Assembly: GCA_019057385.1 (NCBI GenBank)
Contig: JAHQJS010000007.1
Span: 384,001-448,000, forward strand
Direction: 5' to 3'
DNA from: Candidatus Borrarchaeum weybense
GTDB lineage: Archaea; Asgardarchaeota; Sifarchaeia; Borrarchaeales; Borrarchaeaceae
DNA: 64,000 nt
In this document: piece after piece, positions 25,912 through 64,000 of the stretch
Numbering within the stretch: the stretch's first letter is position 1
Layout: each line of letters starts with the position of its first letter
Notes under the pieces: model-generated
The model's database searches: none
What the model was told of the DNA's origin: nothing
What the model saw: the letters and a program-made list of their open reading frames with translations, nothing else
Position numbers and translations under genes: made by a program

Positions 25912-27099
25912 TCACTGGATGCTTTCTAATATTTCTAAATTCCTTTTAGCCAAGACCAATTCTGGATCTAGTTCTAGCGCCTTTCCATAATATTTGATCG
26001 CCTTTTTGAATTCATTCAAAGCCTCACAGGCAATTCCTAAAAGTTCCCATGATTTTGCATTCTCAGGTTCAATATTCAACGCTTGTTGATAGTATTTTAC
26101 TGCCTTTTCGTACTCACCTAAATTATAATAAAGTTGTCCTAAAAGATTCCATGGATCTGTATTCCTCGGATTGAGTTCCACGGCTTTCTGGCAATATTCT
26201 ATTGCCTTATCACGATCACCTAATTTTCCATAAGCTTCTCCTACATTATACCATGCTTTTGCAGATTCAGGATTGATTTTTAGCACTTTCTGATAAAAGT
26301 CAACAGCTTTATTATATTCGCCTAAATGGTAGTAAGCGTCTCCTAAATTGTACCAGAGGTCTGAATTTCCCGACTTCACTTCCAAGAATTTTTCATACCA
26401 TTCAATTGCTTTGTTATATTCACCTAACTCCCCGTACGCTATACCCATATCATACCAGGTAATTGTATCTTCAGGATTGATTTTTAAAACTTGATGATAA
26501 CAATTAACCGCATTCTGATGCTCACCTAATTTACTATAAGCGATTCCCATTTTGTACCAAGGATCTGAAAACACAGGTGTTATTTCCAATGAATTTTGAA
26601 AGCATTCGATGGCTTTGGTATGCATAAATAATTCTTCATACACCAAACCCATGCCATACCAAGCATCAGGATCATTTGGGTTTATATCAAGTGCTTTTTG
26701 ATAGCAATCAATGGTTTTTTCATGCTTGTCTAAAGTGCTGTAAACTACACCCATAAGAAGCCATGTATCTGCATTATCAGGCTTGATTTCAGCCGCGTGA
26801 TGATAGCAGTCAATGGCTTCTTTATATTTGCCTAAATAGTAGTATGAACCACCCATGAGCACCCAAGCATCTGCTTTTGTAGCATCGATGTCCATTGCTT
26901 TTTGATAGCAATCAATAGACTGCTGATGTTCACCTAGCTTTCCATGTGCCTTTCCCAAAAATATCCATGCAATATAGATATCTTCTGATTCTTCCAAGGC
27001 TTTTTTGTATTCTTTAATGGATTCTTTATATTCTCCTTGATCATAATAGGTTTTTCCTTTCTCAAGATGAATATTGTTTAGCATTTTAGCTTCACTCAT
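25912..27099 (-). CDS. TPR-only protein (start revised to ATG 27099)
   Basis: About 11 TPRs, paralog of neighbour; the longer ORF call overlaps the upstream gene. Confidence 0.9.
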   Translation of the reverse strand: MSEAKMLNNIHLEKGKTYYDQGEYKESIKEYKKALEESEDIYIAWIFLGKAHGKLGEHQQSIDCYQKAMDIDATKADAWVLMGGSYYYLGKYKEAIDCYHHAAEIKPDNADTWLLMGVVYSTLDKHEKTIDCYQKALDINPNDPDAWYGMGLVYEELFMHTKAIECFQNSLEITPVFSDPWYKMGIAYSKLGEHQNAVNCYHQVLKINPEDTITWYDMGIAYGELGEYNKAIEWYEKFLEVKSGNSDLWYNLGDAYYHLGEYNKAVDFYQKVLKINPESAKAWYNVGEAYGKLGDRDKAIEYCQKAVELNPRNTDPWNLLGQLYYNLGEYEKAVKYYQQALNIEPENAKSWELLGIACEALNEFKKAIKYYGKALELDPELVLAKRNLEILESIQ

Positions 27100-29669: not shown

Positions 29670-29960
29670 GTCAATCACCCCTTAACAAGTTAAGGGGCTT
29701 GTTCCGTGAGGAATAAGAGTAATTGGTTGATTAGCCTAAGAGAGGTCATGGTGGAAACAACATGACGGTATCTACGTTATCAGGAGAGTTAAAGAACGCA
29801 CCAAGGGATGCTTCTCTAGTCCCTTGCTCTGTAAACGGTGGTTTAAACAGAGAGGAAACTCTCAGTGATCATCGTATAGTACTGACTGATAACCTTGGCG
29901 AAGAGAACCTACTCCCTTGATGTTGGGAGCGACGGGACTTGCGAGTACCCGTCATTAAAA
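29670..29960 (+). ncRNA. HEARO / IscB omegaRNA scaffold
   Basis: GTCAATCACCCC..GGGGCTTG..GTTGATTAG..CTACGTT..GGATGCTTCTCTAGTCC..GGCGAAGAGAA pattern with pseudoknot complement; 3' end approximate. Confidence 0.8.
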
Positions 29961-30075
29961 CACCACCTGAGGTTAGGTATATCATCCCCTGTCTTCGTAG
30001 AAAGGGTTGTGTGAGCAACGCCCGGGATCAATTCCTCACCCCAACAAGTTGGGGGGTCTCCTTGAGGTAATAATT
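29670..30075 (+). mobile_element. Non-autonomous IscB-type IS200/IS605 element (406 bp), no iscB
   Basis: Terminal hairpins with AACAAGTT loop; second copy at 58543..58947; followed by ATGA. Confidence 0.88.
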
Positions 30076-30447
30076 ATGATGCCATTTCAAGAAATGATGG
30101 AACAGATGAAAAAACAAATCCGTGAAGGCATCAAACTAAAACGTCCTTCTCCTAATTCCATACAAATGTCAATTGATAAAAACATTGTGGATGAGAATAC
30201 AAGCTCTCAAATTCTGAATCTTGATGAGATGAAGAAAAACATAGGTGAAATCACAGGCAACCCTGAAGATTTGATTTCATTTGAAGCAGGCGATGATAAT
30301 ATTAAACTAGGTTTCAGTGGAGAGGAACCAGCTAATAAAGTGTTTCAGTTTCTAAACGAATTTCTTTACGGGGATATGTTAGATAAACTTATGAAGCCAT
30401 TTCTTGAAATGATGGAGCAGATGAAAAAGAGTTTTGGCGCTGAGTAA
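30076..30447 (+). CDS. Hypothetical Met-rich protein; first 6 codons (29652..29669) detached by insertion
   Basis: Empty site reads MEMLEE|MMPFQEMMEQMKK in frame; element end supplies GAGGT before ATG. Confidence 0.75.
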   Translation: MMPFQEMMEQMKKQIREGIKLKRPSPNSIQMSIDKNIVDENTSSQILNLDEMKKNIGEITGNPEDLISFEAGDDNIKLGFSGEEPANKVFQFLNEFLYGDMLDKLMKPFLEMMEQMKKSFGAE

Positions 30448-53814: not shown

Positions 53815-56800
53815 ATGAGAAAGAATTATATTTTCATCATCGTTCTGATCAGTCTATTAGCATCTAGTATGATTGTTAACGATGCGATGCGTGTTTATGC
53901 TCAGACTGATATTGAGGATTTCGTTGATAACAATTCAAGTGATATAGACACTTCACCAGATATAGGCAATCATTATGATTTTGATAAAGAGAAAGCCAAT
54001 GATTCTGATTTTGATACCTTAAATGAATCCTTAATTGTGACTCCTCCCATAAAAGATTTCGTTGATAACAATTCAAGTGACGTAGATTCTTCTTCGAATT
54101 TAGGGGCGCATTCTAATTTTACAGCCATGCAATATGGTCCAGACTCAATATATGATAACATAACTGAGGTGAATAACGCTGGCATGGTCAATACGACGCT
54201 CATTGATGCAGAATCCTTTGAAGGAGCTTGGCCTCCATCTGATCCATCTGACTGGACTGAAACTGGACGATGGAACAAAGAAAGCGATTTTGTGCCTTCT
54301 GGTGGTGGAACCTATTCAGCGGATATTGAACATTCTGGGGGTTATTATTCAGAGTCAGGAGATTTGATCACCGCTGATTTAGATTGCTCTGATGCGGCAG
54401 CAATATATGTGAGTTTCTATTTTAGAGAAGCCGTTAGCGCGGATACCGAGTTTCAGCTATACTTTTGGAATGGGGCGACGTGGGTTAACATCGAAGATTT
54501 GGGTCAGGGTTATTCGCCAGGTTGGAACCTTTGGGAAATGGAAGTCACCGACAGTCAATATTTCAAGTCAGATTTCAAAATTCGTTGGAGAGCAAATGCG
54601 ATTGAGAGCGGTGAAAACGCGAATGTTGATTTGGTTACCGTAAAAAAGGAAACACCCCTCCCCGATAATTACGCATTAAATTTAGAAGTACAATTTACTG
54701 CAGTTCCCTATTCTCTAGCCAGTGAAACACTCTGTATCTATATGGGTTATAATGGCACTGAAGCTATTAGGGTAGATTATTGGAATGGAACTGGCTGGGA
54801 GAATGTTTTCACGTATTTAAATAACAGTTCTTGGAATAACGCATCAGTCTCAGTAACGAATTCTAATTTTACCATTAGATTTAATGGCACTATAGAATCA
54901 GGTGATACCACGCAGGATTATTATCTGATAGATTGTGTTATTTTGAGACTTGAGGGTGATGGCCATAACGAATTTGTTGTTCAAAATCAAGATTCGGATG
55001 TTGATGGAACTGGGGATGCAGGAGAAATTATTGATTTCTCCAATATGACTGCTTCCGACACTAATATGACCCTTTTGAACGAGACAATTGAAACTGGCGG
55101 CGATCCCAACGAATATTCTATTGATTTGACTGGCGGATATATTAGTTGCGCTACTGCTGATATAGGTGTAGCAGCTGGAACTATTTCATTCTGGATTCAA
55201 TTTGATTCGACAACTTCAGGCAGACCCGTTGGAATGAATGGCAATGAAGAATTAAGACTTAGTAATAGCATTTTATATGCTGATTGGGGAGAAAGCGGAC
55301 CAAGTTTTACTTCTGATACTACCTTTACAATAGGTACATGGTATTTCGTGGCAGTCACATGGGATGAAACAGCAAACGATCTTTTTCTATATGTTGGAAC
55401 AGAAACAACAACACCTTCTTTAGATGCAGGTAGTTCCGCTGCGGGAAGTTGGACAGGAACGACATCAACTATTCCTCAAGCTGCAGTCTATTGGGGAAAT
55501 GGATATGGTTTTTCTGAACCAGTAAATGGGCACATGGATGATATACGTTTTTACGATACAGTAAGAACCTTGAGCGAAATCCGTAGTGATTATAACCAGA
55601 CTCTAACAGGAACTGAAACAGATCTCGTGAATTATTATAAATTAGAGAATGATTATACCGATTCTGCTGCTGGAAATGATGATGGGACTCTTTCTGGCTC
55701 TGGTGCTTTCTCAACCGATGTACCCTCATGGGAGGTTGGTAGTGGTGGTACTAATTTTATTTTAGACCAAGAAGTTCAATGGACTAATATTCCCTCGAAT
55801 TTGCTAAATGAGTATCTATGTATAAAAACGGGAACGTTTTCAGGAACGGAGAAGATATTGGTTGATGCCTGGAATGGAACTGACTGGGAAAACCTCTTTG
55901 ACGATTTGGACGCTAACTGGAATAATGTTTCAATTGCTGATTACCTGACTAGTTCCACTTTTACCATAAGATTTAGGGATGACAACACCACAGAAGATAG
56001 CAGCATTCATGATACATGGGAAATCGATGTTGCACTAATTCACATTTGGAACGAAGACGAGGTTTACAAATTAGACCTAGAGGTTCAATTTGAAGAACCG
56101 CTATTTGCTGATGAATATTTTGAAAAATTATGTATAAAAACAGGAGCATTCTCAGGAATAGAGGATCTTTTAGTTGATGTATGGGATGGTTCACAATGGC
56201 AGGAGGTTCCTGATTTAAATCCATTAAATCCAAATGTTTGGAATAATGCGAGTGTCGCATCATATCTAATAAGCAGTACGGAGAACTTCACAATTCGGTA
56301 TAGGGGAGGTTCTGAGACTTCAGACGATGTACCGGATACATGGCAAATAGATGCTGTTTTACTACATACTTACACTCCATTTGATGATGCGCCCCCAAAC
56401 ATTTCTTGGGGATCAAATCAATTTACAAATGATATAGGAACTCACCAGGTTCATATAGATGTTGACGCAGAAGATATATATTTCGGATCTGGTATTGATA
56501 CGGTTTGGTATCGCATTTGGAACGTTTCATCTGGAATCGAATGGGTTCCTGATCATAATAATGTTTCTTTATCCTTGTCTTCTGGTTATGAGATCGATAT
56601 CAATGTTTCAACTTGGCATCCCTCAACTGAGTACTATGTAGAGGCGTTTGCGACTGACAACTCAGCCCTGAAAAATGAAAATACTACTCAAAATATCACT
56701 GGAGATGAATACAGGTACTTCACGATTGTACACGGCATTGACGTGAGTCAACCAACGGTAACTTACTCGGGGGGTTCAATACAAGAACTAGACATTTCTG

Positions 56801-58410
56801 TTGCAAACGTTAGCTGTAGTTATGCAGCACATGGACCGTTAACTATCAGCAACACCGCACCAGACGTTCATAACTACACAATTTATACTATTGGAGAATT
56901 ATCAACAGGTATTACTGGATTTTTATATCCTTATCAAGAGATGTGGCAAGCTTTCGATGTTGACATCTCTAGTCTGCCTGATGGCGATTATTATGTTCAA
57001 TGCGATTTTGAAGATTCGTGGGGACATACGGGGACAAGCCCCCCTTCCATCAGTTTCACAAAAACAACTGATACCAGCAATGGTGGAGGCAATGGTGGCG
57101 GAGATGGTTCTAGTGATGGAGGTGGTAGCGATGGAACAAGCACGAATACCTTCCTTCTCAATTTCCTGAACAATTTTTACGGCACTAAGCCTGGCCAAAC
57201 AGTAACATTATCAGGAACTATCAGTTCAAATGAAAATGGAAAACTTCTAACGATCACCTTTGAGGGTGAAACGTACACGGCGTATACATTCAATAATGGT
57301 GAATTCGAAGTTACGCTCACGGCACCAAATACCTATGGCAGTTACACTGTTACTGCAAAATTTGCAGGCGATTCAAGCTGGGAAAGTACGAGTACGACTT
57401 GTCAACTCCTTGTTGTAGAAAAAGAAACACAAATGACTATTGATATCGATGGTAACCTAGCTATTGGCGAGCAAATTACGATCCAAACTACCTTGACAAC
57501 AGAAAATGGAGATCTAATGCCTGGTGAGAAGATCACCATCTATATCTATGAGCGAACAAATTCCGTCTCAACTAGTACGCTCTTGACGTCTTCAGGTGTA
57601 AGAGTGTTTTCGGTAGATACACGATATTGGGATTTAATCGCAACATATGAGATTACAACCGATGAGAATGGCAAAGCGACTATTGAGTTGACGATTTCTA
57701 CTGATCAGGATGTACAGATCGTAGCAGAATACGCAGGCAAAATTGAAGGCGAAGGCGGAGAGAACTTAGGTCCATCAATTGTAACATATGTGGAAGGCGA
57801 AACAGGGCCTTTTATTTTAATGTCAAGTGAAATGTTGTATCTTTTCGGAGGAATATTGGCAACAGTCTTAGTGATAGGCTTAATTGTAGTGAAGAAAACG
57901 GATCTCCTTTCAGTTATTATCCAACGGGAGAAAATAGAAGAGACTGTTATACTATCACAAGATCTACTTGATCCAACTCGTTTCGGAATAAAAGCGGTAT
58001 TTATGATTGTGTTTGATCCAGTTATAGGCCCTATGATTAAAGAAAGTCGATTTTTTGATTTTCAAGTTGAGTTTTTCAACGACCTTAAGGATCCTTCAAA
58101 GCTTACACTCTTTTATTCAATGAGTGCAACAAAAGAGCAGTTTAAACTTGAAGAAAAGAATGAACACATTTTTGTAAAATCTGCAACAACATTGATAATC
58201 AATGAAGCAGATATGACAGTTTCTGGCGAAACAGTAGCTCCAAACCTGATCATAGTAATTGCAAAGAAAGGATGTAATGAGAATTTTGTGTGGAAGTTCA
58301 TAAATACAGTCTTGGTAGGATGGTCTGACCATCAGGGATATCTGGTACATCAAATGGATCGTTTGGATTCTGAAAATATGATAGATTTAGGTATCCTCAG
58401 TCTTTTTTAA
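53815..58410 (+). CDS. Giant single-pass surface glycoprotein (LamG-like and Ig-like domains) with cytoplasmic longin/uDENN-like tail
   Basis: Signal peptide, WYFVAVTW..GHMDDIRFY LamG motif, internal repeats, Gly linker, TM, VFDPVIGP. Confidence 0.8.
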   Translation: MRKNYIFIIVLISLLASSMIVNDAMRVYAQTDIEDFVDNNSSDIDTSPDIGNHYDFDKEKANDSDFDTLNESLIVTPPIKDFVDNNSSDVDSSSNLGAHSNFTAMQYGPDSIYDNITEVNNAGMVNTTLIDAESFEGAWPPSDPSDWTETGRWNKESDFVPSGGGTYSADIEHSGGYYSESGDLITADLDCSDAAAIYVSFYFREAVSADTEFQLYFWNGATWVNIEDLGQGYSPGWNLWEMEVTDSQYFKSDFKIRWRANAIESGENANVDLVTVKKETPLPDNYALNLEVQFTAVPYSLASETLCIYMGYNGTEAIRVDYWNGTGWENVFTYLNNSSWNNASVSVTNSNFTIRFNGTIESGDTTQDYYLIDCVILRLEGDGHNEFVVQNQDSDVDGTGDAGEIIDFSNMTASDTNMTLLNETIETGGDPNEYSIDLTGGYISCATADIGVAAGTISFWIQFDSTTSGRPVGMNGNEELRLSNSILYADWGESGPSFTSDTTFTIGTWYFVAVTWDETANDLFLYVGTETTTPSLDAGSSAAGSWTGTTSTIPQAAVYWGNGYGFSEPVNGHMDDIRFYDTVRTLSEIRSDYNQTLTGTETDLVNYYKLENDYTDSAAGNDDGTLSGSGAFSTDVPSWEVGSGGTNFILDQEVQWTNIPSNLLNEYLCIKTGTFSGTEKILVDAWNGTDWENLFDDLDANWNNVSIADYLTSSTFTIRFRDDNTTEDSSIHDTWEIDVALIHIWNEDEVYKLDLEVQFEEPLFADEYFEKLCIKTGAFSGIEDLLVDVWDGSQWQEVPDLNPLNPNVWNNASVASYLISSTENFTIRYRGGSETSDDVPDTWQIDAVLLHTYTPFDDAPPNISWGSNQFTNDIGTHQVHIDVDAEDIYFGSGIDTVWYRIWNVSSGIEWVPDHNNVSLSLSSGYEIDINVSTWHPSTEYYVEAFATDNSALKNENTTQNITGDEYRYFTIVHGIDVSQPTVTYSGGSIQELDISVANVSCSYAAHGPLTISNTAPDVHNYTIYTIGELSTGITGFLYPYQEMWQAFDVDISSLPDGDYYVQCDFEDSWGHTGTSPPSISFTKTTDTSNGGGNGGGDGSSDGGGSDGTSTNTFLLNFLNNFYGTKPGQTVTLSGTISSNENGKLLTITFEGETYTAYTFNNGEFEVTLTAPNTYGSYTVTAKFAGDSSWESTSTTCQLLVVEKETQMTIDIDGNLAIGEQITIQTTLTTENGDLMPGEKITIYIYERTNSVSTSTLLTSSGVRVFSVDTRYWDLIATYEITTDENGKATIELTISTDQDVQIVAEYAGKIEGEGGENLGPSIVTYVEGETGPFILMSSEMLYLFGGILATVLVIGLIVVKKTDLLSVIIQREKIEETVILSQDLLDPTRFGIKAVFMIVFDPVIGPMIKESRFFDFQVEFFNDLKDPSKLTLFYSMSATKEQFKLEEKNEHIFVKSATTLIINEADMTVSGETVAPNLIIVIAKKGCNENFVWKFINTVLVGWSDHQGYLVHQMDRLDSENMIDLGILSLF

Positions 58411-58542
58411 TTGGAATAAAACGATCTAGCGTGTTTCTGTTTTTTCTGTTTTATCTTTTTTTAAGAAGAAGGGAACAATGGGACAACTGCATTCTCATCA
58501 AATTAAAAAAGGAGTTAGTTGTGTGCTATTTTTCCACTTCAT

Positions 58543-58947
58543 AAGATTACCTCAAGGAGACCCCCCAACGTGTTGGGGAGAGAAATTGAGGTCAGGTATT
58601 TGACCATACAACCCTTTCTGCGGGGACAGGGGTTGGTGTACCCGATCTCGGGTGGTGTTTTAATGACGGGTACTCTCAAGTTCCGTCGCTCCCAACACCA
58701 GGGAGTTGGTTCTCTTCGCCAAGGTTATCAGTCAGTATTATACGGTGATCACTGAGAGTTTCCTCTCTGTTTAAACCACCGTTTACAGAGCAAGGGACTA
58801 GAGAAGCATCCCTTGGTGTGTTCTTTAACTCTCCTGGTAACGTAGATACCGCCATGGTTGTTTCACCACGACCTCTCTTAGGCTAATCAACCAATTGCCC
58901 TTGATCCTCACGGAACAAGCCCCTTAACAAGTTAAGGGGTGATTGAC
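58543..58947 (-). mobile_element. Non-autonomous IscB-type IS200/IS605 element (405 bp), second copy
   Basis: Colinear with 29670..30075; followed by ATGA. Confidence 0.88.
58655..58947 (-). ncRNA. HEARO / IscB omegaRNA scaffold, copy 2
   Basis: Same motifs as copy 1 with stem-preserving substitutions. Confidence 0.8.
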
Positions 58948-59060
58948 AACCTTCTTCTTCCCACTCATGTATCCTATGTTTGAGGCTTTTCACATTTCTA
59001 TAGCCGTATGCTTTTAGAAATAGTGTTGCATGAGCACTCTATGACCACTTCCGGCAATAT

Positions 59061-59265
59061 GTGAGCTACCTCGTGCTAAAGCATCGAGGCTTCCTGCTTC
59101 TACGACAGACTCGATCCCCTTGCGGGTTACAGAGGGGTTATCTCCACAGGCGTAAATCCCCTACGCCCCGTAGGTACTCATAGGGGATATTACAAAAAAA
59201 ACTATATAAACACCATACAATTCATCATTAGGCCAAAGCATTGGTGCTTTCTTGCTTAATTGTCT
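59061..59265 (-). mobile_element. 205-bp TnpB-type element: left end, TATA box, omegaRNA, right end
   Basis: TTAC|agacaattaagcaagAAAGcacc..; TTTATATA 59210-59203; gtacctacggggcgtagggg..cctgtggag..GAAGcctcgatgctttagcacgaggtagcTCAC. Confidence 0.82.
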
Positions 59266-59435
59266 GTAATAATTTCAGTATCTTTGTCCTTAGAGTACGA
59301 GTTTTTTTAAAAAAAATATATTTAAAGTAAAAACTTGAGAAAATTGTTTTATAACAAGATTGATCTTCGAATATCGCAGTTATTATCGCGATTTTCTCAG
59401 ATCACTAAAGAATAATTGATCATTGAATTTTTGAT

Positions 59436-59462
59436 TCACGGCTTAAGCGTGAGGTAGTTCAT
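59436..59462 (+). mobile_element. IS200/IS605 right-end remnant
   Basis: tcacggcttaagcgtgaggtagttca, similar to 29621..29647. Confidence 0.6.
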
Positions 59463-62400
59463 TCTTCGAAGCTGTATGTTCTTATTTTTACTACAACGAA
59501 CTCTCCTTTGTCTTTTGAAAAGATGCCGTTGAGATAATTCTTATCAACTAGAATTTGAATTATACTCTCTGCTTCCTCTGCTGAAGTTCCGAATTCTGCA
59601 GCGATATCACTAAACTTAACTCGTTTCTTGTCTTCTTCGCCTATATAATCTAAGATCTGATAATCTAGTTGGTCTTTAATCAAATTGTTTTCATTGAGTT
59701 CTATTTTACAGTTAGGACAACGTTCATTTGCTCGAACGTACCCTAAATAGAGATCTTTATGGCCATACACCTTGCAATAGGGACATCTGATATATTCCTC
59801 ACCAGACTGGATGTCGAGCCCACAAATGACGCATTTCACTCTCTTTTGACCACAATTTGGACACTCGTCAGCTTCTTCGGGAATAACAAAACCGCATTTC
59901 ACACATAATGTTTGTCTCTCATACATTTTCGCCTCAGCTTCTCTTGATCGAAGATATTCAATCGGTAAAATATCTTTATAATCTTTAGCAAGTGTCGAAA
60001 ACACTATTGACGCATCAGCATATTTGCCTGCTTCCATTGACTCATCTGCAGTAAGTAATGAAGTAATTGCAGTTAAATATCTTTCTGCTACGTTTTGTTT
60101 TTCCCTATCTTTTGCCTTTGTGAAAAGCGTAACAGCTTTACGAACATTGTTCAAGGCTTCTTTGAAGTTCTTTTTCATTAACAATTCGACAGCATAATCA
60201 AAATACATTTTACCAGCTGTTTCATATGTTTCGGCAAGTCTATAGGCCCTTTCTGCAAGAACATAAGATTTTAGACGTCGATATTTTTCCCCTAAGTTGA
60301 ACCATAGTTCAATAGCTTTTTCCAAACTTATTTTTTCTTCAACTAGTTTGGCAAGGTCGATATACATAGACTCTGCAACAAGACATGTTTCAGCAGCCTC
60401 TTCTATTTTACCTACTTTAATAAAGTCTCGTACTGCAGTCTCATAATCTCTTCCTTCTCTAGCCCCTACGGCACTCTTGTATCTTCGTCTCTTACGTGAA
60501 TACACAAGAGCTGCTAAGCCAATAACGGCAAGTAATCCACCCATTCCAACCATTATTTCCATATCTGGAAGGGCTGGCTGTATAGTTACCACAAAACTTT
60601 TTGTTGCACTTACATAATCGTTTTTCTCAGCAGTTAGAATGCACAAGTACGTCGCTGTAGCAATGCTACTAGTATCAATATCTGCTGTATAAAGCCCTCC
60701 ACCAAGTTCGTCAAATGTAATCCAGGTTCTATTGCCAATATTCAATACAACATTAGCGCCTTCAACGCCTTTTTCGAATTCATCTGTTACATTCACCGAA
60801 ATCGTCATTATTGTACCCTGTCTGAAAGTATTGCTAGCCAATGAATGTAATAGGTATAAACGGTGTGAAGGAGTCGTATCACCATCACCGCCACCACCGC
60901 TGCTTCCACCGCCATCACTACTTCCACCATCTCCACCGCCACGGTCACCACCACCACCACCGGACTCGGTCACAGTGTAAGTGTAAGCTGAACTGGTATT
61001 ACTATTTCCTGCACTATCGAAAACTTGGAAGAAGTAAACTACAACAGTTCCCGCAGATTGGGCGGGGATCGTTCCGCTATATGAATTACCGTATTGCATA
61101 AGAATTGAGGGCCTTGGTGAGCCGTTTACTGTATAATTTAAGTATACATTTAAGACGGGCGGATCTACGAATGGTAAATCATCAGGGTTAGGTATTGTGA
61201 TAGTAACGTCATCATTATCATCAGGATTCGCAACTGATTGTTGTGGAACAAAAGGATCTGGAAGTTCAGGAGGAATATCATCGACTATCAGAGTATTCCC
61301 GTTTTCAGTTTCTCCCGAAATTTCGAGGTTATCAAAGGCAATTATATCAATGAAATATATCTCTGATGATCTACCTGTAGAATCCCAAGTATTGGTATAG
61401 ATGTCATCTCCAGATGTGGCATCACTGTGCGTCCCGTCATCATATAACCGTATTATAGCAATATCTATTTCATTTGGGAATTGAATATAAGCAGTTACGT
61501 TTTTGACACCTGAAGGAAAGTCTATAACATATGCGGTTATGAGAAACTCTGTGCCTGAAGTACCTGCAGAAGGATTAGTTTGAACATTAGAAACTACAGG
61601 AGGATCATCGTCAATTATAAATGTTGCTACGTTCTCTGTTTCTCCTTGGTTCTCAACATTATCAAAAGCGATGATATCTATATAATATTCTCCCGAAAGT
61701 TGCCCAAATGAGTCCCAGGTACCTCCATAGGTACCATCTCCAGCTATCCCATCATTATGATTCCCATCGTCATAAAGACGCACACTATCTATTGTAGTTT
61801 CATCCGGTAGTTGGATATAAGCAGTTACGTTCTTGATTCCAGAGTCACCATCAAAAACATCAGCAGTAATATTGAAAAGTGTGCCAGATTTTTCTGCAGT
61901 TGGATCAACTAAGGCATTGGAAATAGTTGGTGCTGTATTGTCTATTAAGAAAATATCACCGTTTTCTTCTTCCCATTGGTTATTTGCATTGTCAAAGGCA
62001 ATTATATCAACGAAATATGTTCCTTCAGGTTGTCCAGAGGAGTCCCAATTGTTTCCATAGGTGCCATCTCCGGCGGCTCCATCATTATGGTTTCCATCAT
62101 CGAATAACTGTAAGATAACAATATTAATCTCATTTGGATGTTGAATGTATGCTGTTACGTTCTTGACACCCGAGAGTGTGTCTGTTACAAAAGCAGTTAC
62201 ATTAAAAGTAGTTCCTGAAGTTCCAATATTTGGATTTACCACAACATTGATTGAGGGAATTACTGGAGGTGTATCATCAACAATCAGAGTTTCTGCATTT
62301 TCAATTTCACCTTGATTGTTATCATTATCAGTTGCGACTATATCGATATAATACAATCCTTCTGATTCACCAGCAGAATTCCAGCTGTTTCCGTAGATAT

Positions 62401-64000
62401 CATCTCCTGCCAGTCCATCATTATGATTACCATCATCATATAACTGTAATATTGCAATATTTGTTTCATCTGGCAGCTGAATGTAGGCGAAAACATCTCT
62501 GACACCAGAAACGTCGGTAACAGTGGCAGTTATATTGAAAAGTGTTCCAGATTGTCCTATAGCAGGAATTACTTGTATGTTAGTTACACTTGGAGGATTG
62601 TTTATTATGAAAATATCCCCATCTTCTACTGATCTTTGATTTTCTACATTATCGAAAGCAATTATATCAACGAAATATGTTCCTTCAGGTTGTCCAGAGG
62701 AGTCCCAATTGTTTCCATAGGTGCCATCTCCGGCGGCTCCATCATTATGGTTTCCATCATCAAATAACTGTAAGATAACAATATTAATCTCATTTGGACG
62801 TTGAATATAAGCTGTCACATTTTTTACTCCTGATTGCACATCTGTTACAATTGCAGTTATTACAAAAATAGTTCCAGTTTCTCCCTGTGACGGCGTTACT
62901 TGGATATTTTGCGATAATGCTTCAGGAGGAGTCTTATCGATGCCAAAGAATCTAGCATTTGTTCCTGAAAGCTGAATTTCGTTTCCGAGTGAATCATTTG
63001 CGAAAATTTCTACCCTATAATAATTGACAATTGAACGCCACCCTGAAGTGTCTATATTAAGAGTATAATCAGGACCAAGCAGAGTTTGATTATTATATGC
63101 AGGGACATAAACACTTGAAGAGATATTATAAATTCTAAACCAAACCGTATCAACAACATTCTGCAAATCAGTTGCGTCCACATCAATAACGACCTGATCG
63201 ATCCACCAGGTATCATTGGCAAAATTATTCGTGTCCCAGGTTAAAACAGGTGGCGCATTATCAACTCTAAAGAATCGGGCATCGATCCCTGCTAGTTGCA
63301 TTTCATTACCGGCAGAATCGTTCGCAAAAACTTCTACTCTGTAGTAGGTAGAAGCAGAATTCCACCAAGAGGTGTCTATTGTAGTATTAAAATGAGGACC
63401 TAACAAACTAGCGTTATTGTGGCCTGGAACGTATTCACTAGCAGAGATATTGAAAATTCTATACCAGACTGTGTTCAATTGTAATAAATCGATTGCATCC
63501 ACATCGATAACGACTTCACCATTCCACCAGGTATCATTTGCAAAATTTTCAGTATCCCAATTTAGAGTAGGCAGATCAAGATCAATTCTAAAGAATCGTG
63601 CATCGATTCCGATCAGTTGCGTTTCATAACCTGAGGTATCGTTAGCAAAGACCTCTACTCTGTAATATATATCTGCAGAATGCCAGCTGGAAGTATCGAT
63701 AGTTGTATTGAAATCAGGACTTGAAAGGCTGGCATTATTGTGTCCGGGAACATAGTCACTTGAGGAAACATTATAGATTCGATACCAAACGAATTCGACA
63801 GTTTGTTCCAAATCTACTGCATCTACATCAATGACAACCTGACTATTCTGCCAAGTATCATTAACAAAATTATTGGTGTCCCAATTCAGGGTAGGTGGAT
63901 TTCGATCTATTCCAAAGAACCTAGCTTCCGTTCCAGTTAGTTGTGCTTCATTTCCTATTGTATCATTAGCAAAAACTTCTACTCGATAGTAGATATTTGC
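59459..64000 (-). CDS. Giant single-pass surface protein (Ig-like and DDGxHxDxxxGDxxY repeats) with cytoplasmic helical repeats, zinc ribbon, RING-like and PCI-like domains; 5' end beyond window
   Basis: Frame open to 64000; five DDGxHxD repeats; TM then RKRRR; CVKC..CPNC, CVIC..CPYC..H..CPNC; winged-helix end. Confidence 0.82.
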   Translation of the reverse strand, partial: ANIYYRVEVFANDTIGNEAQLTGTEARFFGIDRNPPTLNWDTNNFVNDTWQNSQVVIDVDAVDLEQTVEFVWYRIYNVSSSDYVPGHNNASLSSPDFNTTIDTSSWHSADIYYRVEVFANDTSGYETQLIGIDARFFRIDLDLPTLNWDTENFANDTWWNGEVVIDVDAIDLLQLNTVWYRIFNISASEYVPGHNNASLLGPHFNTTIDTSWWNSASTYYRVEVFANDSAGNEMQLAGIDARFFRVDNAPPVLTWDTNNFANDTWWIDQVVIDVDATDLQNVVDTVWFRIYNISSSVYVPAYNNQTLLGPDYTLNIDTSGWRSIVNYYRVEIFANDSLGNEIQLSGTNARFFGIDKTPPEALSQNIQVTPSQGETGTIFVITAIVTDVQSGVKNVTAYIQRPNEINIVILQLFDDGNHNDGAAGDGTYGNNWDSSGQPEGTYFVDIIAFDNVENQRSVEDGDIFIINNPPSVTNIQVIPAIGQSGTLFNITATVTDVSGVRDVFAYIQLPDETNIAILQLYDDGNHNDGLAGDDIYGNSWNSAGESEGLYYIDIVATDNDNNQGEIENAETLIVDDTPPVIPSINVVVNPNIGTSGTTFNVTAFVTDTLSGVKNVTAYIQHPNEINIVILQLFDDGNHNDGAAGDGTYGNNWDSSGQPEGTYFVDIIAFDNANNQWEEENGDIFLIDNTAPTISNALVDPTAEKSGTLFNITADVFDGDSGIKNVTAYIQLPDETTIDSVRLYDDGNHNDGIAGDGTYGGTWDSFGQLSGEYYIDIIAFDNVENQGETENVATFIIDDDPPVVSNVQTNPSAGTSGTEFLITAYVIDFPSGVKNVTAYIQFPNEIDIAIIRLYDDGTHSDATSGDDIYTNTWDSTGRSSEIYFIDIIAFDNLEISGETENGNTLIVDDIPPELPDPFVPQQSVANPDDNDDVTITIPNPDDLPFVDPPVLNVYLNYTVNGSPRPSILMQYGNSYSGTIPAQSAGTVVVYFFQVFDSAGNSNTSSAYTYTVTESGGGGGDRGGGDGGSSDGGGSSGGGGDGDTTPSHRLYLLHSLASNTFRQGTIMTISVNVTDEFEKGVEGANVVLNIGNRTWITFDELGGGLYTADIDTSSIATATYLCILTAEKNDYVSATKSFVVTIQPALPDMEIMVGMGGLLAVIGLAALVYSRKRRRYKSAVGAREGRDYETAVRDFIKVGKIEEAAETCLVAESMYIDLAKLVEEKISLEKAIELWFNLGEKYRRLKSYVLAERAYRLAETYETAGKMYFDYAVELLMKKNFKEALNNVRKAVTLFTKAKDREKQNVAERYLTAITSLLTADESMEAGKYADASIVFSTLAKDYKDILPIEYLRSREAEAKMYERQTLCVKCGFVIPEEADECPNCGQKRVKCVICGLDIQSGEEYIRCPYCKVYGHKDLYLGYVRANERCPNCKIELNENNLIKDQLDYQILDYIGEEDKKRVKFSDIAAEFGTSAEEAESIIQILVDKNYLNGIFSKDKGEFVVVKIRTYSFEE
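61998..62806. repeat. Intragenic 149-bp direct repeat (61998..62146 and 62658..62806)
   Basis: Two mismatches by eye; 660-bp offset. Confidence 0.9.

Follow-up and report, generated by a model that had tools for sequence, protein, structure and literature searches.

Stand-alone derivatives of IS200/IS605-family OMEGA elements have been described for ISGst of Geobacillus stearothermophilus, where PATE-like or stand-alone HEARO elements keep both ends and the RNA scaffold of the transposon and have lost the nuclease gene (Meers et al., 2023, bioRxiv 10.1101/2023.03.14.532601). As reported there, their guide is derived from the flank, they insert precisely at a short motif (target TTCAT) without duplication, and genes at other sites of the genome provide the nucleases and the only TnpA. 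The same source places the IscB guide outside the element, makes IscB omega RNAs dependent on read-in transcription and, in Extended Data Fig. 1c, shows that genes upstream of iscB are strongly biased towards the same orientation, which is not so for tnpB; whether such copies are "preferentially generated" or "preferentially retained" is left open there. TnpB elements of the IS608/ISDra2 type possess an omega RNA (reRNA) that overlaps the tnpB 3' end and the right end of the element, together with a 3' guide taken from the flank, and IS608 uses the motif TTAC. Here we report that a 64,000-nucleotide (nt) stretch of the Asgard archaeon Candidatus Borrarchaeum weybense (hereafter the window) harbors two derivatives of these kinds in tandem, first a TnpB-type and then an IscB-type mini-element, both in the same sense as the rhodanese gene that they interrupt, and that pairs in this arrangement are enriched in the genome.

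The elements studied here resemble those of Geobacillus in all the respects listed above, but have an Asgard host, and the IscB-type minis retain about 15 iscB codons and end in a Shine-Dalgarno-like GAGGT. The TnpB-type elements share the TTAC motif with IS608, and the placement of the scaffold and the flank-derived 3' guide with IS608/ISDra2; they differ in that tnpB has been deleted and that an archaeal TATA box stands directly before a shortened scaffold of ~120 nt. As in the published IscB bias, a same-sense unit lies upstream of IscB-type copies and no such bias is seen for TnpB-type copies, whereas the upstream unit in 4/36 cases is a mobile element with a predicted outward promoter rather than a host gene. 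A recurrent TnpB-type cassette in this position is not mentioned in the parts of Meers et al. (2023) that were read, and no literature search was aimed at the pairing. The elements themselves are ordinary, and the interest, which is mild, lies in the interaction between the two families. New here are the count of strictly oriented pairs and the further pairs of the sister genomes, alleles with neither or only one of the elements, the different sense bias of the two families, and the connection with the transcription rule already published.

The window corresponds to G000:C7:384001-448000, where G000 denotes the source genome (4.18 Mb, roughly 35% GC), and four sister genomes of the same genus (G001 to G004) were used for comparison. 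IscB-type scaffolds were called with the Rfam covariance model of the IscB omega RNA (HEARO, RF02033; gathering score 83) and TnpB-type right ends by BLAST with the last 60 nt of the mini-element, so that 36 HEARO starts and 74 right ends were mapped in the source genome. A same-sense TnpB-type right end was present at most 300 nt upstream of the HEARO start in four of the 36 cases, with gaps of 22, 93, 115 and 207 nt (the value of 115 nt is that of the rhodanese locus by mapped end coordinates, its true spacer being 113 nt). Only 0.09 such pairs were expected under a uniform null and 0.25 under a null confined to intergenic DNA, and none of 5,000 uniform or 20,000 intergenic-only permutations reached four. 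The other three arrangements of the 36 scaffolds and 74 right ends gave no pair within 500 nt. Two sister genomes, the assemblies of which are fragmented, contain one further same-sense pair each: at G003:C15 the gap is 38 nt, and at G004:C98, where the HEARO is truncated, it is 25 nt. Because their subfamilies and spacers differ, the four pairs of the source genome are independent events. The strictly oriented enrichment, roughly 15- to 40-fold and replicated in two sister genomes, is real, and it is a minority pattern.

An unlikely explanation for this excess is that both families simply accumulated in permissive DNA such as dead genes and spacers, their shared orientation being a small-number accident or a consequence of host-gene orientation. 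When pairs within 300 nt were counted in any arrangement, four were observed against 1.28 expected under the intergenic-only null (P only ~0.04), which speaks for such co-accumulation. However, the excess is confined to one arrangement (4:0:0:0 in the source genome, plus the two sister-genome pairs), so that much of the signal lies in the strict configuration and not in proximity alone. TnpB-type ends, moreover, do not cluster among themselves (two pairs at most 2.5 kb apart vs 3.2 expected), and general clustering of mobile elements was rejected as the sole cause on this ground.

Two other contacts between the families were noted. At G000:C6:389432-389953 a full-length IscB element lies in the same sense inside a TnpB-type element, the left-end and internal segments of which reach up to 16 nt before the HEARO start. 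In a contact listed at C7:655150-655250, a stub of a TnpB-type right end (..GTGAGGTAGTTTAC) directly adjoins the far end of an IscB element, at C7:656674.

At the rhodanese locus (locus B), the minus strand reads TTAC, a 205-nt TnpB-type element, a 113-nt spacer, a 405-nt IscB-type element and ATGA (Table 1). The sequence-only reading had described this tandem, and Rfam, the right-end family and Pfam all bore it out; the 113-nt gap that it gave is exact, and the order and sense are indeed those of a second pair at 29.3 kb (locus A), where the gap is 22 nt. A third pair is referred to below as C6:872, from its position in the source genome.

Table 1. Features of locus B, in window coordinates.
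Feature	Position	Strand	Basis
TTAC, transposon-adjacent motif (TAM) just 5' of the TnpB-type left end	59266..59269	-	family flanks, empty alleles
TnpB-type mini-element, 205 nt, protein-less	59061..59265	-	16 full-length family copies
Predicted TnpB guide, 20 nt of host DNA (rhodanese codons YCRKWS) after the right end	59041..59060	-	flank variability, published TnpB systems
Spacer, 113 nt of host DNA coding for rhodanese YCRKWS*SAHATLFLKAYGYRNVKSLKHRIHEWEEEG	58948..59060	-	translation, Pfam, paralogue alignments
Predicted IscB guide, 16 nt of host DNA adjoining the HEARO 5' side	58948..58963	-	flank variability; position after Meers et al.
IscB-type mini-element, 405 nt, protein-less	58543..58947	-	Rfam and nine related copies
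ATGA flank; on the other strand (T)TCAT, the TAM in the transposase's frame	58539..58542	-	copy flanks, G004 empty allele
Rhodanese pseudogene, C-terminal half (pieces 59295-59266, 59060-58948 and 58542-58527; stop TAG 58529-58527)	58527..59295	-	Pfam, paralogue alignments
Stub of a third TnpB-type right end, opposite sense, GGCTTAAGCGTGAGGTAGTTCAT	59441..59465	+	right-end BLAST, C7:443463 +

The first 243 nt of the IscB-type element are a complete HEARO (58705-58947, minus strand; 129.6 bits, model positions 1-211); the second complete copy of the window lies at 29670-29912 (plus strand, 130.8 bits). The remaining 162-nt tail contains the first ~15 iscB codons, a subterminal hairpin CCCCAACACGTTGGGG (~58578-58563) and the end TCTCCTTGAGGTAATCTT. 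No iscB (HNH/RuvC) open reading frame (ORF) follows this HEARO, only a 46-aa remnant. Because iscB is reduced to ~15 codons here and iscB genes occur elsewhere, the copy is a stand-alone derivative. The source genome has 16 iscB genes (RRXRR domain), 12 of them behind closely related scaffolds, and the mini-element has nine copies of ~400 nt (84-92% identical). Altogether some 20 mini copies were found, each consisting of the scaffold plus ~160 nt, i.e., the iscB start (TTG AGA GTA CC...), the subterminal hairpin and the end TCTCCTTGAGGTAAT(n2-4); this tail is homologous to the iscB start region and the far ends of full-length elements. All 36 scaffolds start GTCAA(T/C), and the sequence before each of them is unrelated to that before the others, as expected for a flank-derived 5' guide. 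ATGA(A/G/T) trails nearly all copies, and full-length elements end in the same manner.

The TnpB-type element opens with a left end (AAGCAAGAAAGCACC...), behind which lie a TATA box at 59210-59203 (TTTATATA) and, from ~59180 onwards, the omega-RNA core; a hairpin ...GAGGTAGCTCAC forms the right end. The 74 right ends share the consensus ...GAAGCAGGAAGCCTCnnnGCTTTAGCnnGAGGTAGCTCAC, and the sequence after ...GTAGCTCAC differs in all of them, which is what a flank-derived 3' guide would lead one to expect; the predicted guide length of 20 nt follows published TnpB systems. TTAC precedes the left end in nearly all copies (the flanks of ~25 end in TTAC, rarely in TTGC or GTAC). In 16/16 copies of the 205-nt family the TATA box is followed by 22-24 freely varying nt and then by the conserved core ...GAGTACCTACGGGGCGTAGGG. 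A TATA box, a spacer of variable sequence and fixed length, and a core form the pattern of an archaeal promoter ahead of the scaffold, from which expression is predicted. A sigma-70 promoter scan, which is not suited to an archaeon, was empty. Several right ends directly follow intact tnpB zinc-ribbon codons, and the right half of the mini-element is colinear with intact tnpB 3' ends (e.g., C6:870504-870826 and C7:583085-583396). Beyond the last 45 nt, no full-length master with more than ~85% identity to the 205-nt family was found in the source genome, and no Rfam family matched the cassette even at E values up to 1. The terminal hairpin is preserved in an alignment fold with one covarying pair (G-C / A-U), and the single-sequence fold of the whole scaffold is no better than shuffles (z -1.2). 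Subterminal hairpins are recognisable at either end of each element. The source genome encodes 41 TnpB zinc-ribbon hits vs a single Y1 TnpA gene (C7:194221-194586), and this lone TnpA, set beside 74 right ends and 36 HEARO copies, would need to serve both TTAC and TTCAT. About ten "ultra-mini" TnpB-type elements of ~45-90 nt were also noticed, in which the left-end motif AAGCAAGAAAGCACC is joined straight to the hairpin ...GCTTTAGCGTGAGGTAGTTCAC (e.g., G000:C7:539640, C6:583463 and C4:585229).

When both elements are removed, the host gene reads SKDKDTEIIT/YCRKWS*SAHATLFLKAYGYRNVKSLKHRIHEWEEEG/YEVEK followed by a stop, 52 aa in total (slashes mark the joints and the asterisk an in-frame TAG). 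This reading matched Pfam Rhodanese (PF00581) over profile positions 58-101 of 102 with 30.1 bits (E 6.7e-7; cut-off 22.2), while the middle piece alone scored 17.1 bits. In tblastn searches with two intact single-domain rhodanese paralogues of the source genome, the alignment spans both joints as far as the C-terminus (...GLQLEK vs ...GYEVEK), and joining the pieces improved the E values from 0.015 and 0.099 to 2e-5 and 5e-6. Since the Pfam score and the tblastn alignment are restored across the joints, the boundaries IIT/YC and EEEG/YEVEK proposed from the letters alone are correct, within a 1-nt ambiguity due to one shared base per joint. The catalytic Cys is present in a loop that reads CRKWS*S, with the TAG in place of Arg, and no remaining rhodanese similarity was detected upstream of 59295 in any frame. 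The TAG in the catalytic loop and the unrecognisable N-terminal half make the gene a pseudogene; TAG as a coding codon was considered and dropped in view of the other lesions. Between 59045 and 59024 (minus strand) the +1 frame gives SGHR, and deleting an A behind CGG while inserting another behind AGA yields the canonical CRSGHRS. A pair of closely spaced indels that compensate each other is therefore indicated, and not a plain nonsense mutation.

The condition of this gene bears on the unlikely case of chance co-accumulation, which the sequence-only reading had put forward as insertion into already dead DNA. The alternative suits locus B, where the rhodanese gene carries lesions besides the two insertions, among them the in-frame TAG and an N-terminal half that can no longer be recognised, and a third TnpB-type stub lies close by. 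The other pairs, however, are at the 5' ends of intact genes and not in dead DNA.

We searched the sister genomes for alleles that lack one or both elements. For the 29.3 kb pair, G004:C100 has neither element, its flanks being 96-97% identical, and the 22-nt spacer consists of the last 3-4 nt of the leader and the six codons with which the host gene begins (MEMLEE). For the G004:C98 pair, the source genome holds the empty site with its native 25-nt spacer. For C6:872, G004:C69 is without both elements and G002:C112 has the IscB-type but not the TnpB-type element. The empty sites at C6:872 are seamless (...CCCTTAC/TCGCAG... and ...TATCTAAAA/ATGAGT..., slashes at the insertion points): in the empty alleles of G002 and G004 TTAC directly joins the right flank, and the G004 allele places the IscB-type insertion exactly before ATGA. 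Locus B itself had no empty allele in the four sister genomes; the sole orthologue of the giant gene there, at G003:C77 (90% identity), has another neighbour downstream and lacks the rhodanese.

The insertions are thus shown to be separate and canonical, without target duplication, and excision restores the frame. That the two insertions of a tandem are independent is upheld by the empty alleles and native spacers of the other pairs. A composite element moving as one unit was rejected, as the spacers vary in length (22-207 nt) and sequence, and the empty alleles show them to belong to the host. By flank identity at C6:872, G004 is a closer relative of the source genome than G002; the simplest history would be that the IscB-type element came first, was excised in G004, and was joined later by the TnpB-type element in G000, although precise excision permits alternatives.

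Several features of these sites were recorded in passing; L013 and L021 denote extracts of G000:C6 and G004:C100, respectively. At window positions 30076-30105, 30 extra nt (ATGATGCCATTTCAAGAAATGATGGAACAG) separate the IscB-type element of the source genome from ATGAAAAAACAA, which trails the spacer in the empty G004 allele (L021:2150-2290, G004:C100). The extra piece resembles a repeat at the 3' end of the same gene near 30397-30426, and candidate origins are a repair product, a duplication or a transduced flank. The TnpB-type mini of the C6 pair follows TTAC inside a tRNA-like sequence with the 3' part GGTTCAAATCCGGCCCAGGGGACCA (G000:C6:872100-872600; L013:900-1400). ARAGORN detected no tRNA in this interval, with or without the element, and the sequence could represent a tRNA gene that contains an intron or has decayed. 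IscB-type minis insert precisely between the native Shine-Dalgarno spacer of a gene and its ATG, so that the mini end ..CTTGAGGTGTAAAA/ATG substitutes the native ..AAGAGGTTATCTAAAA/ATG (G000:C6:872756-873121, L013:1557-1922). The empty counterpart of this insertion is at G004:C69 ~27050-27060, and the same pattern is seen at window positions 30060-30079. The TAM TTCAT, i.e., ATGAA on the other strand, includes a start codon, and many minis directly precede intact ORFs.

The two families differ in their relation to neighbouring genes. A same-sense ORF ended at most 100 nt upstream of the scaffold in 13/36 HEARO copies, and an opposite-sense ORF lay that close in none (0/36). In tandem gene contexts HEARO copies were sense in 14 cases vs antisense in 3-4, while TnpB-type minis displayed the reverse tendency (8 sense vs 17 antisense). 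Host-gene orientation does not predict same-sense pairs when lone TnpB-type minis lean antisense, which further argues against chance. An IscB-type element was found behind 4/74 TnpB-type right ends vs 13 of ~3,700 ORF ends, ~15x more per unit.

The tandem is probably a special case of the IscB orientation rule and not a dedicated two-part system, with parts that would act through a promoter on one side and read-in on the other. Its two elements are PATE-like relics of IS200/IS605-family OMEGA elements and were inserted separately, probably by ordinary TnpA-type "peel and paste" reactions, the TnpB-type element after TTAC and the IscB-type element before ATGA (TTCAT on the other strand). The TATA promoter of the former would transcribe its omega scaffold outward over the right end and yield a 3' guide matching the flank, whereas the IscB-type cassette, with no promoter before its guide, would need transcription from upstream to make an RNA that carries 16 nt of flank as 5' guide. 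With TnpB and IscB supplied in trans from the 41 and 16 genes, each RNA could guide cleavage of the empty site of its element and thereby help that copy to persist. IscB-type copies may then be kept, or inserted, more readily where a same-sense transcription unit lies upstream. Because a TnpB-type cassette must read outward for the sake of its own guide, it would offer a ready-made upstream transcription unit, a compact one, behind which an insertion would rarely harm the host. Locus B would be permissive in addition, with its upstream giant gene and its dead host gene. Promoter, read-through and processing at locus B are predicted from sequence; its 113-nt spacer contains no run of at least five T and hence no obvious archaeal terminator.

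That the tandem arises through retention is, by analogy with published IscB biology, the most likely form of this reading. The sequence-only reading had spoken of targeting or selection, of which selection through read-through transcription fits that biology best, and targeting is weakened by the allele of G002 that has the IscB-type element alone. If a TnpB relic does feed the guide RNA of IscB, two selfish RNA-guided systems would be coupled in cis; such loci would form a natural test case for preferential insertion vs preferential retention of IscB at transcribed sites, and natural single transcripts would combine the scaffolds of TnpB and IscB, in this order, with a guide between them.

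Several observations weigh against the retention reading. First, 32/36 HEARO copies have no TnpB-type partner. The sequence-only reading, which noted a partner for both full-length IscB-type copies of the window, was right for the window but not genome-wide; it had named a majority of unpartnered copies as counting against the pattern, and that majority exists, yet the oriented enrichment survives it. Second, two of the four pairs prompted the hypothesis, and the rest amount to 2 vs 0.24 expected (Poisson P ~0.02). Third, G001:C35, where a weak HEARO fragment and a TnpB-type end converge, is a possible counter-example. Fourth, a seven-T run in the 207-nt spacer of C6:872 should stop archaeal transcription, and this pair may be due to chance, so that the terminator-like run counts towards chance co-accumulation as well. 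Fifth, the IscB-type copy of locus B already lies behind a same-sense giant gene, and the TnpB-type cassette is unneeded to explain its orientation. Finally, the IscB-type element is apparently the older of the two at C6:872, an order that agrees with retention and disagrees with insertion downstream of an existing cassette.

The last point bears most directly on targeted insertion. Transposases of the IS200/IS605 family act on single-stranded DNA. Transcription of the TnpB-type cassette, or R-loops or hairpins, could bare single-stranded DNA past the right end, where the IscB-type element would integrate in one orientation. Such a route would be in keeping with the single-stranded substrate and with three short gaps just beyond guide length (22, 25 and 38 nt), and the question of generation vs retention was left open by Meers et al. 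(2023). We nevertheless hold it to be quite improbable. At C6:872, where G002 has the IscB-type element only and G004 neither, the IscB-type element was probably first, which argues against simple targeting to existing TnpB-type cassettes. The families also use opposite strands in the transposase's frame (TTAC vs TTCAT), and a replication-strand bias cannot give a shared sense. Replication-strand bias was itself rejected as a cause, since opposite-strand motifs predict opposite guide-RNA sense and both families' strands are mixed along every contig.

A closer coupling than the retention reading implies is possible though doubtful, namely that TnpB-type minis are portable outward promoters used by IscB-type minis, that a short spacer is the guide for both nucleases and that pairs are retained longer. 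Very improbable indeed is a functional two-scaffold module, in which one transcript with its spacer would guide both nucleases or the pair would provide promoter and leader for a host gene. The order TnpB-type, then IscB-type, with a shared sense is the only arrangement where 3' and 5' guides can coincide; three pairs have spacers of 22-38 nt, and at locus A and C6:872 an intact gene begins immediately after the Shine-Dalgarno-like GAGGT with which the IscB-type element ends. At locus B, however, the spacer is 113 nt of pseudogene, the guides do not overlap and no gene follows. Spacer length varies between 22 and 207 nt, the empty alleles identify spacers as ordinary host sequence, and the pairs are not conserved between sister genomes.

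With 45-50% GC, locus B forms a GC-rich island; the genes on either side of it, which encode giant surface proteins, are convergent (53815-58410, plus strand; 59459-63811, minus strand). For the annotation of Asgard genomes, it follows that GC-rich islands of this kind in AT-rich "intergenic" DNA conceal split pseudogenes. The third TnpB-type right-end stub of the locus abuts the latter giant gene, which encodes 1450 aa, and provides its TGA stop; the G003 orthologue of this gene terminates in GAAGAATAA, without the stub.

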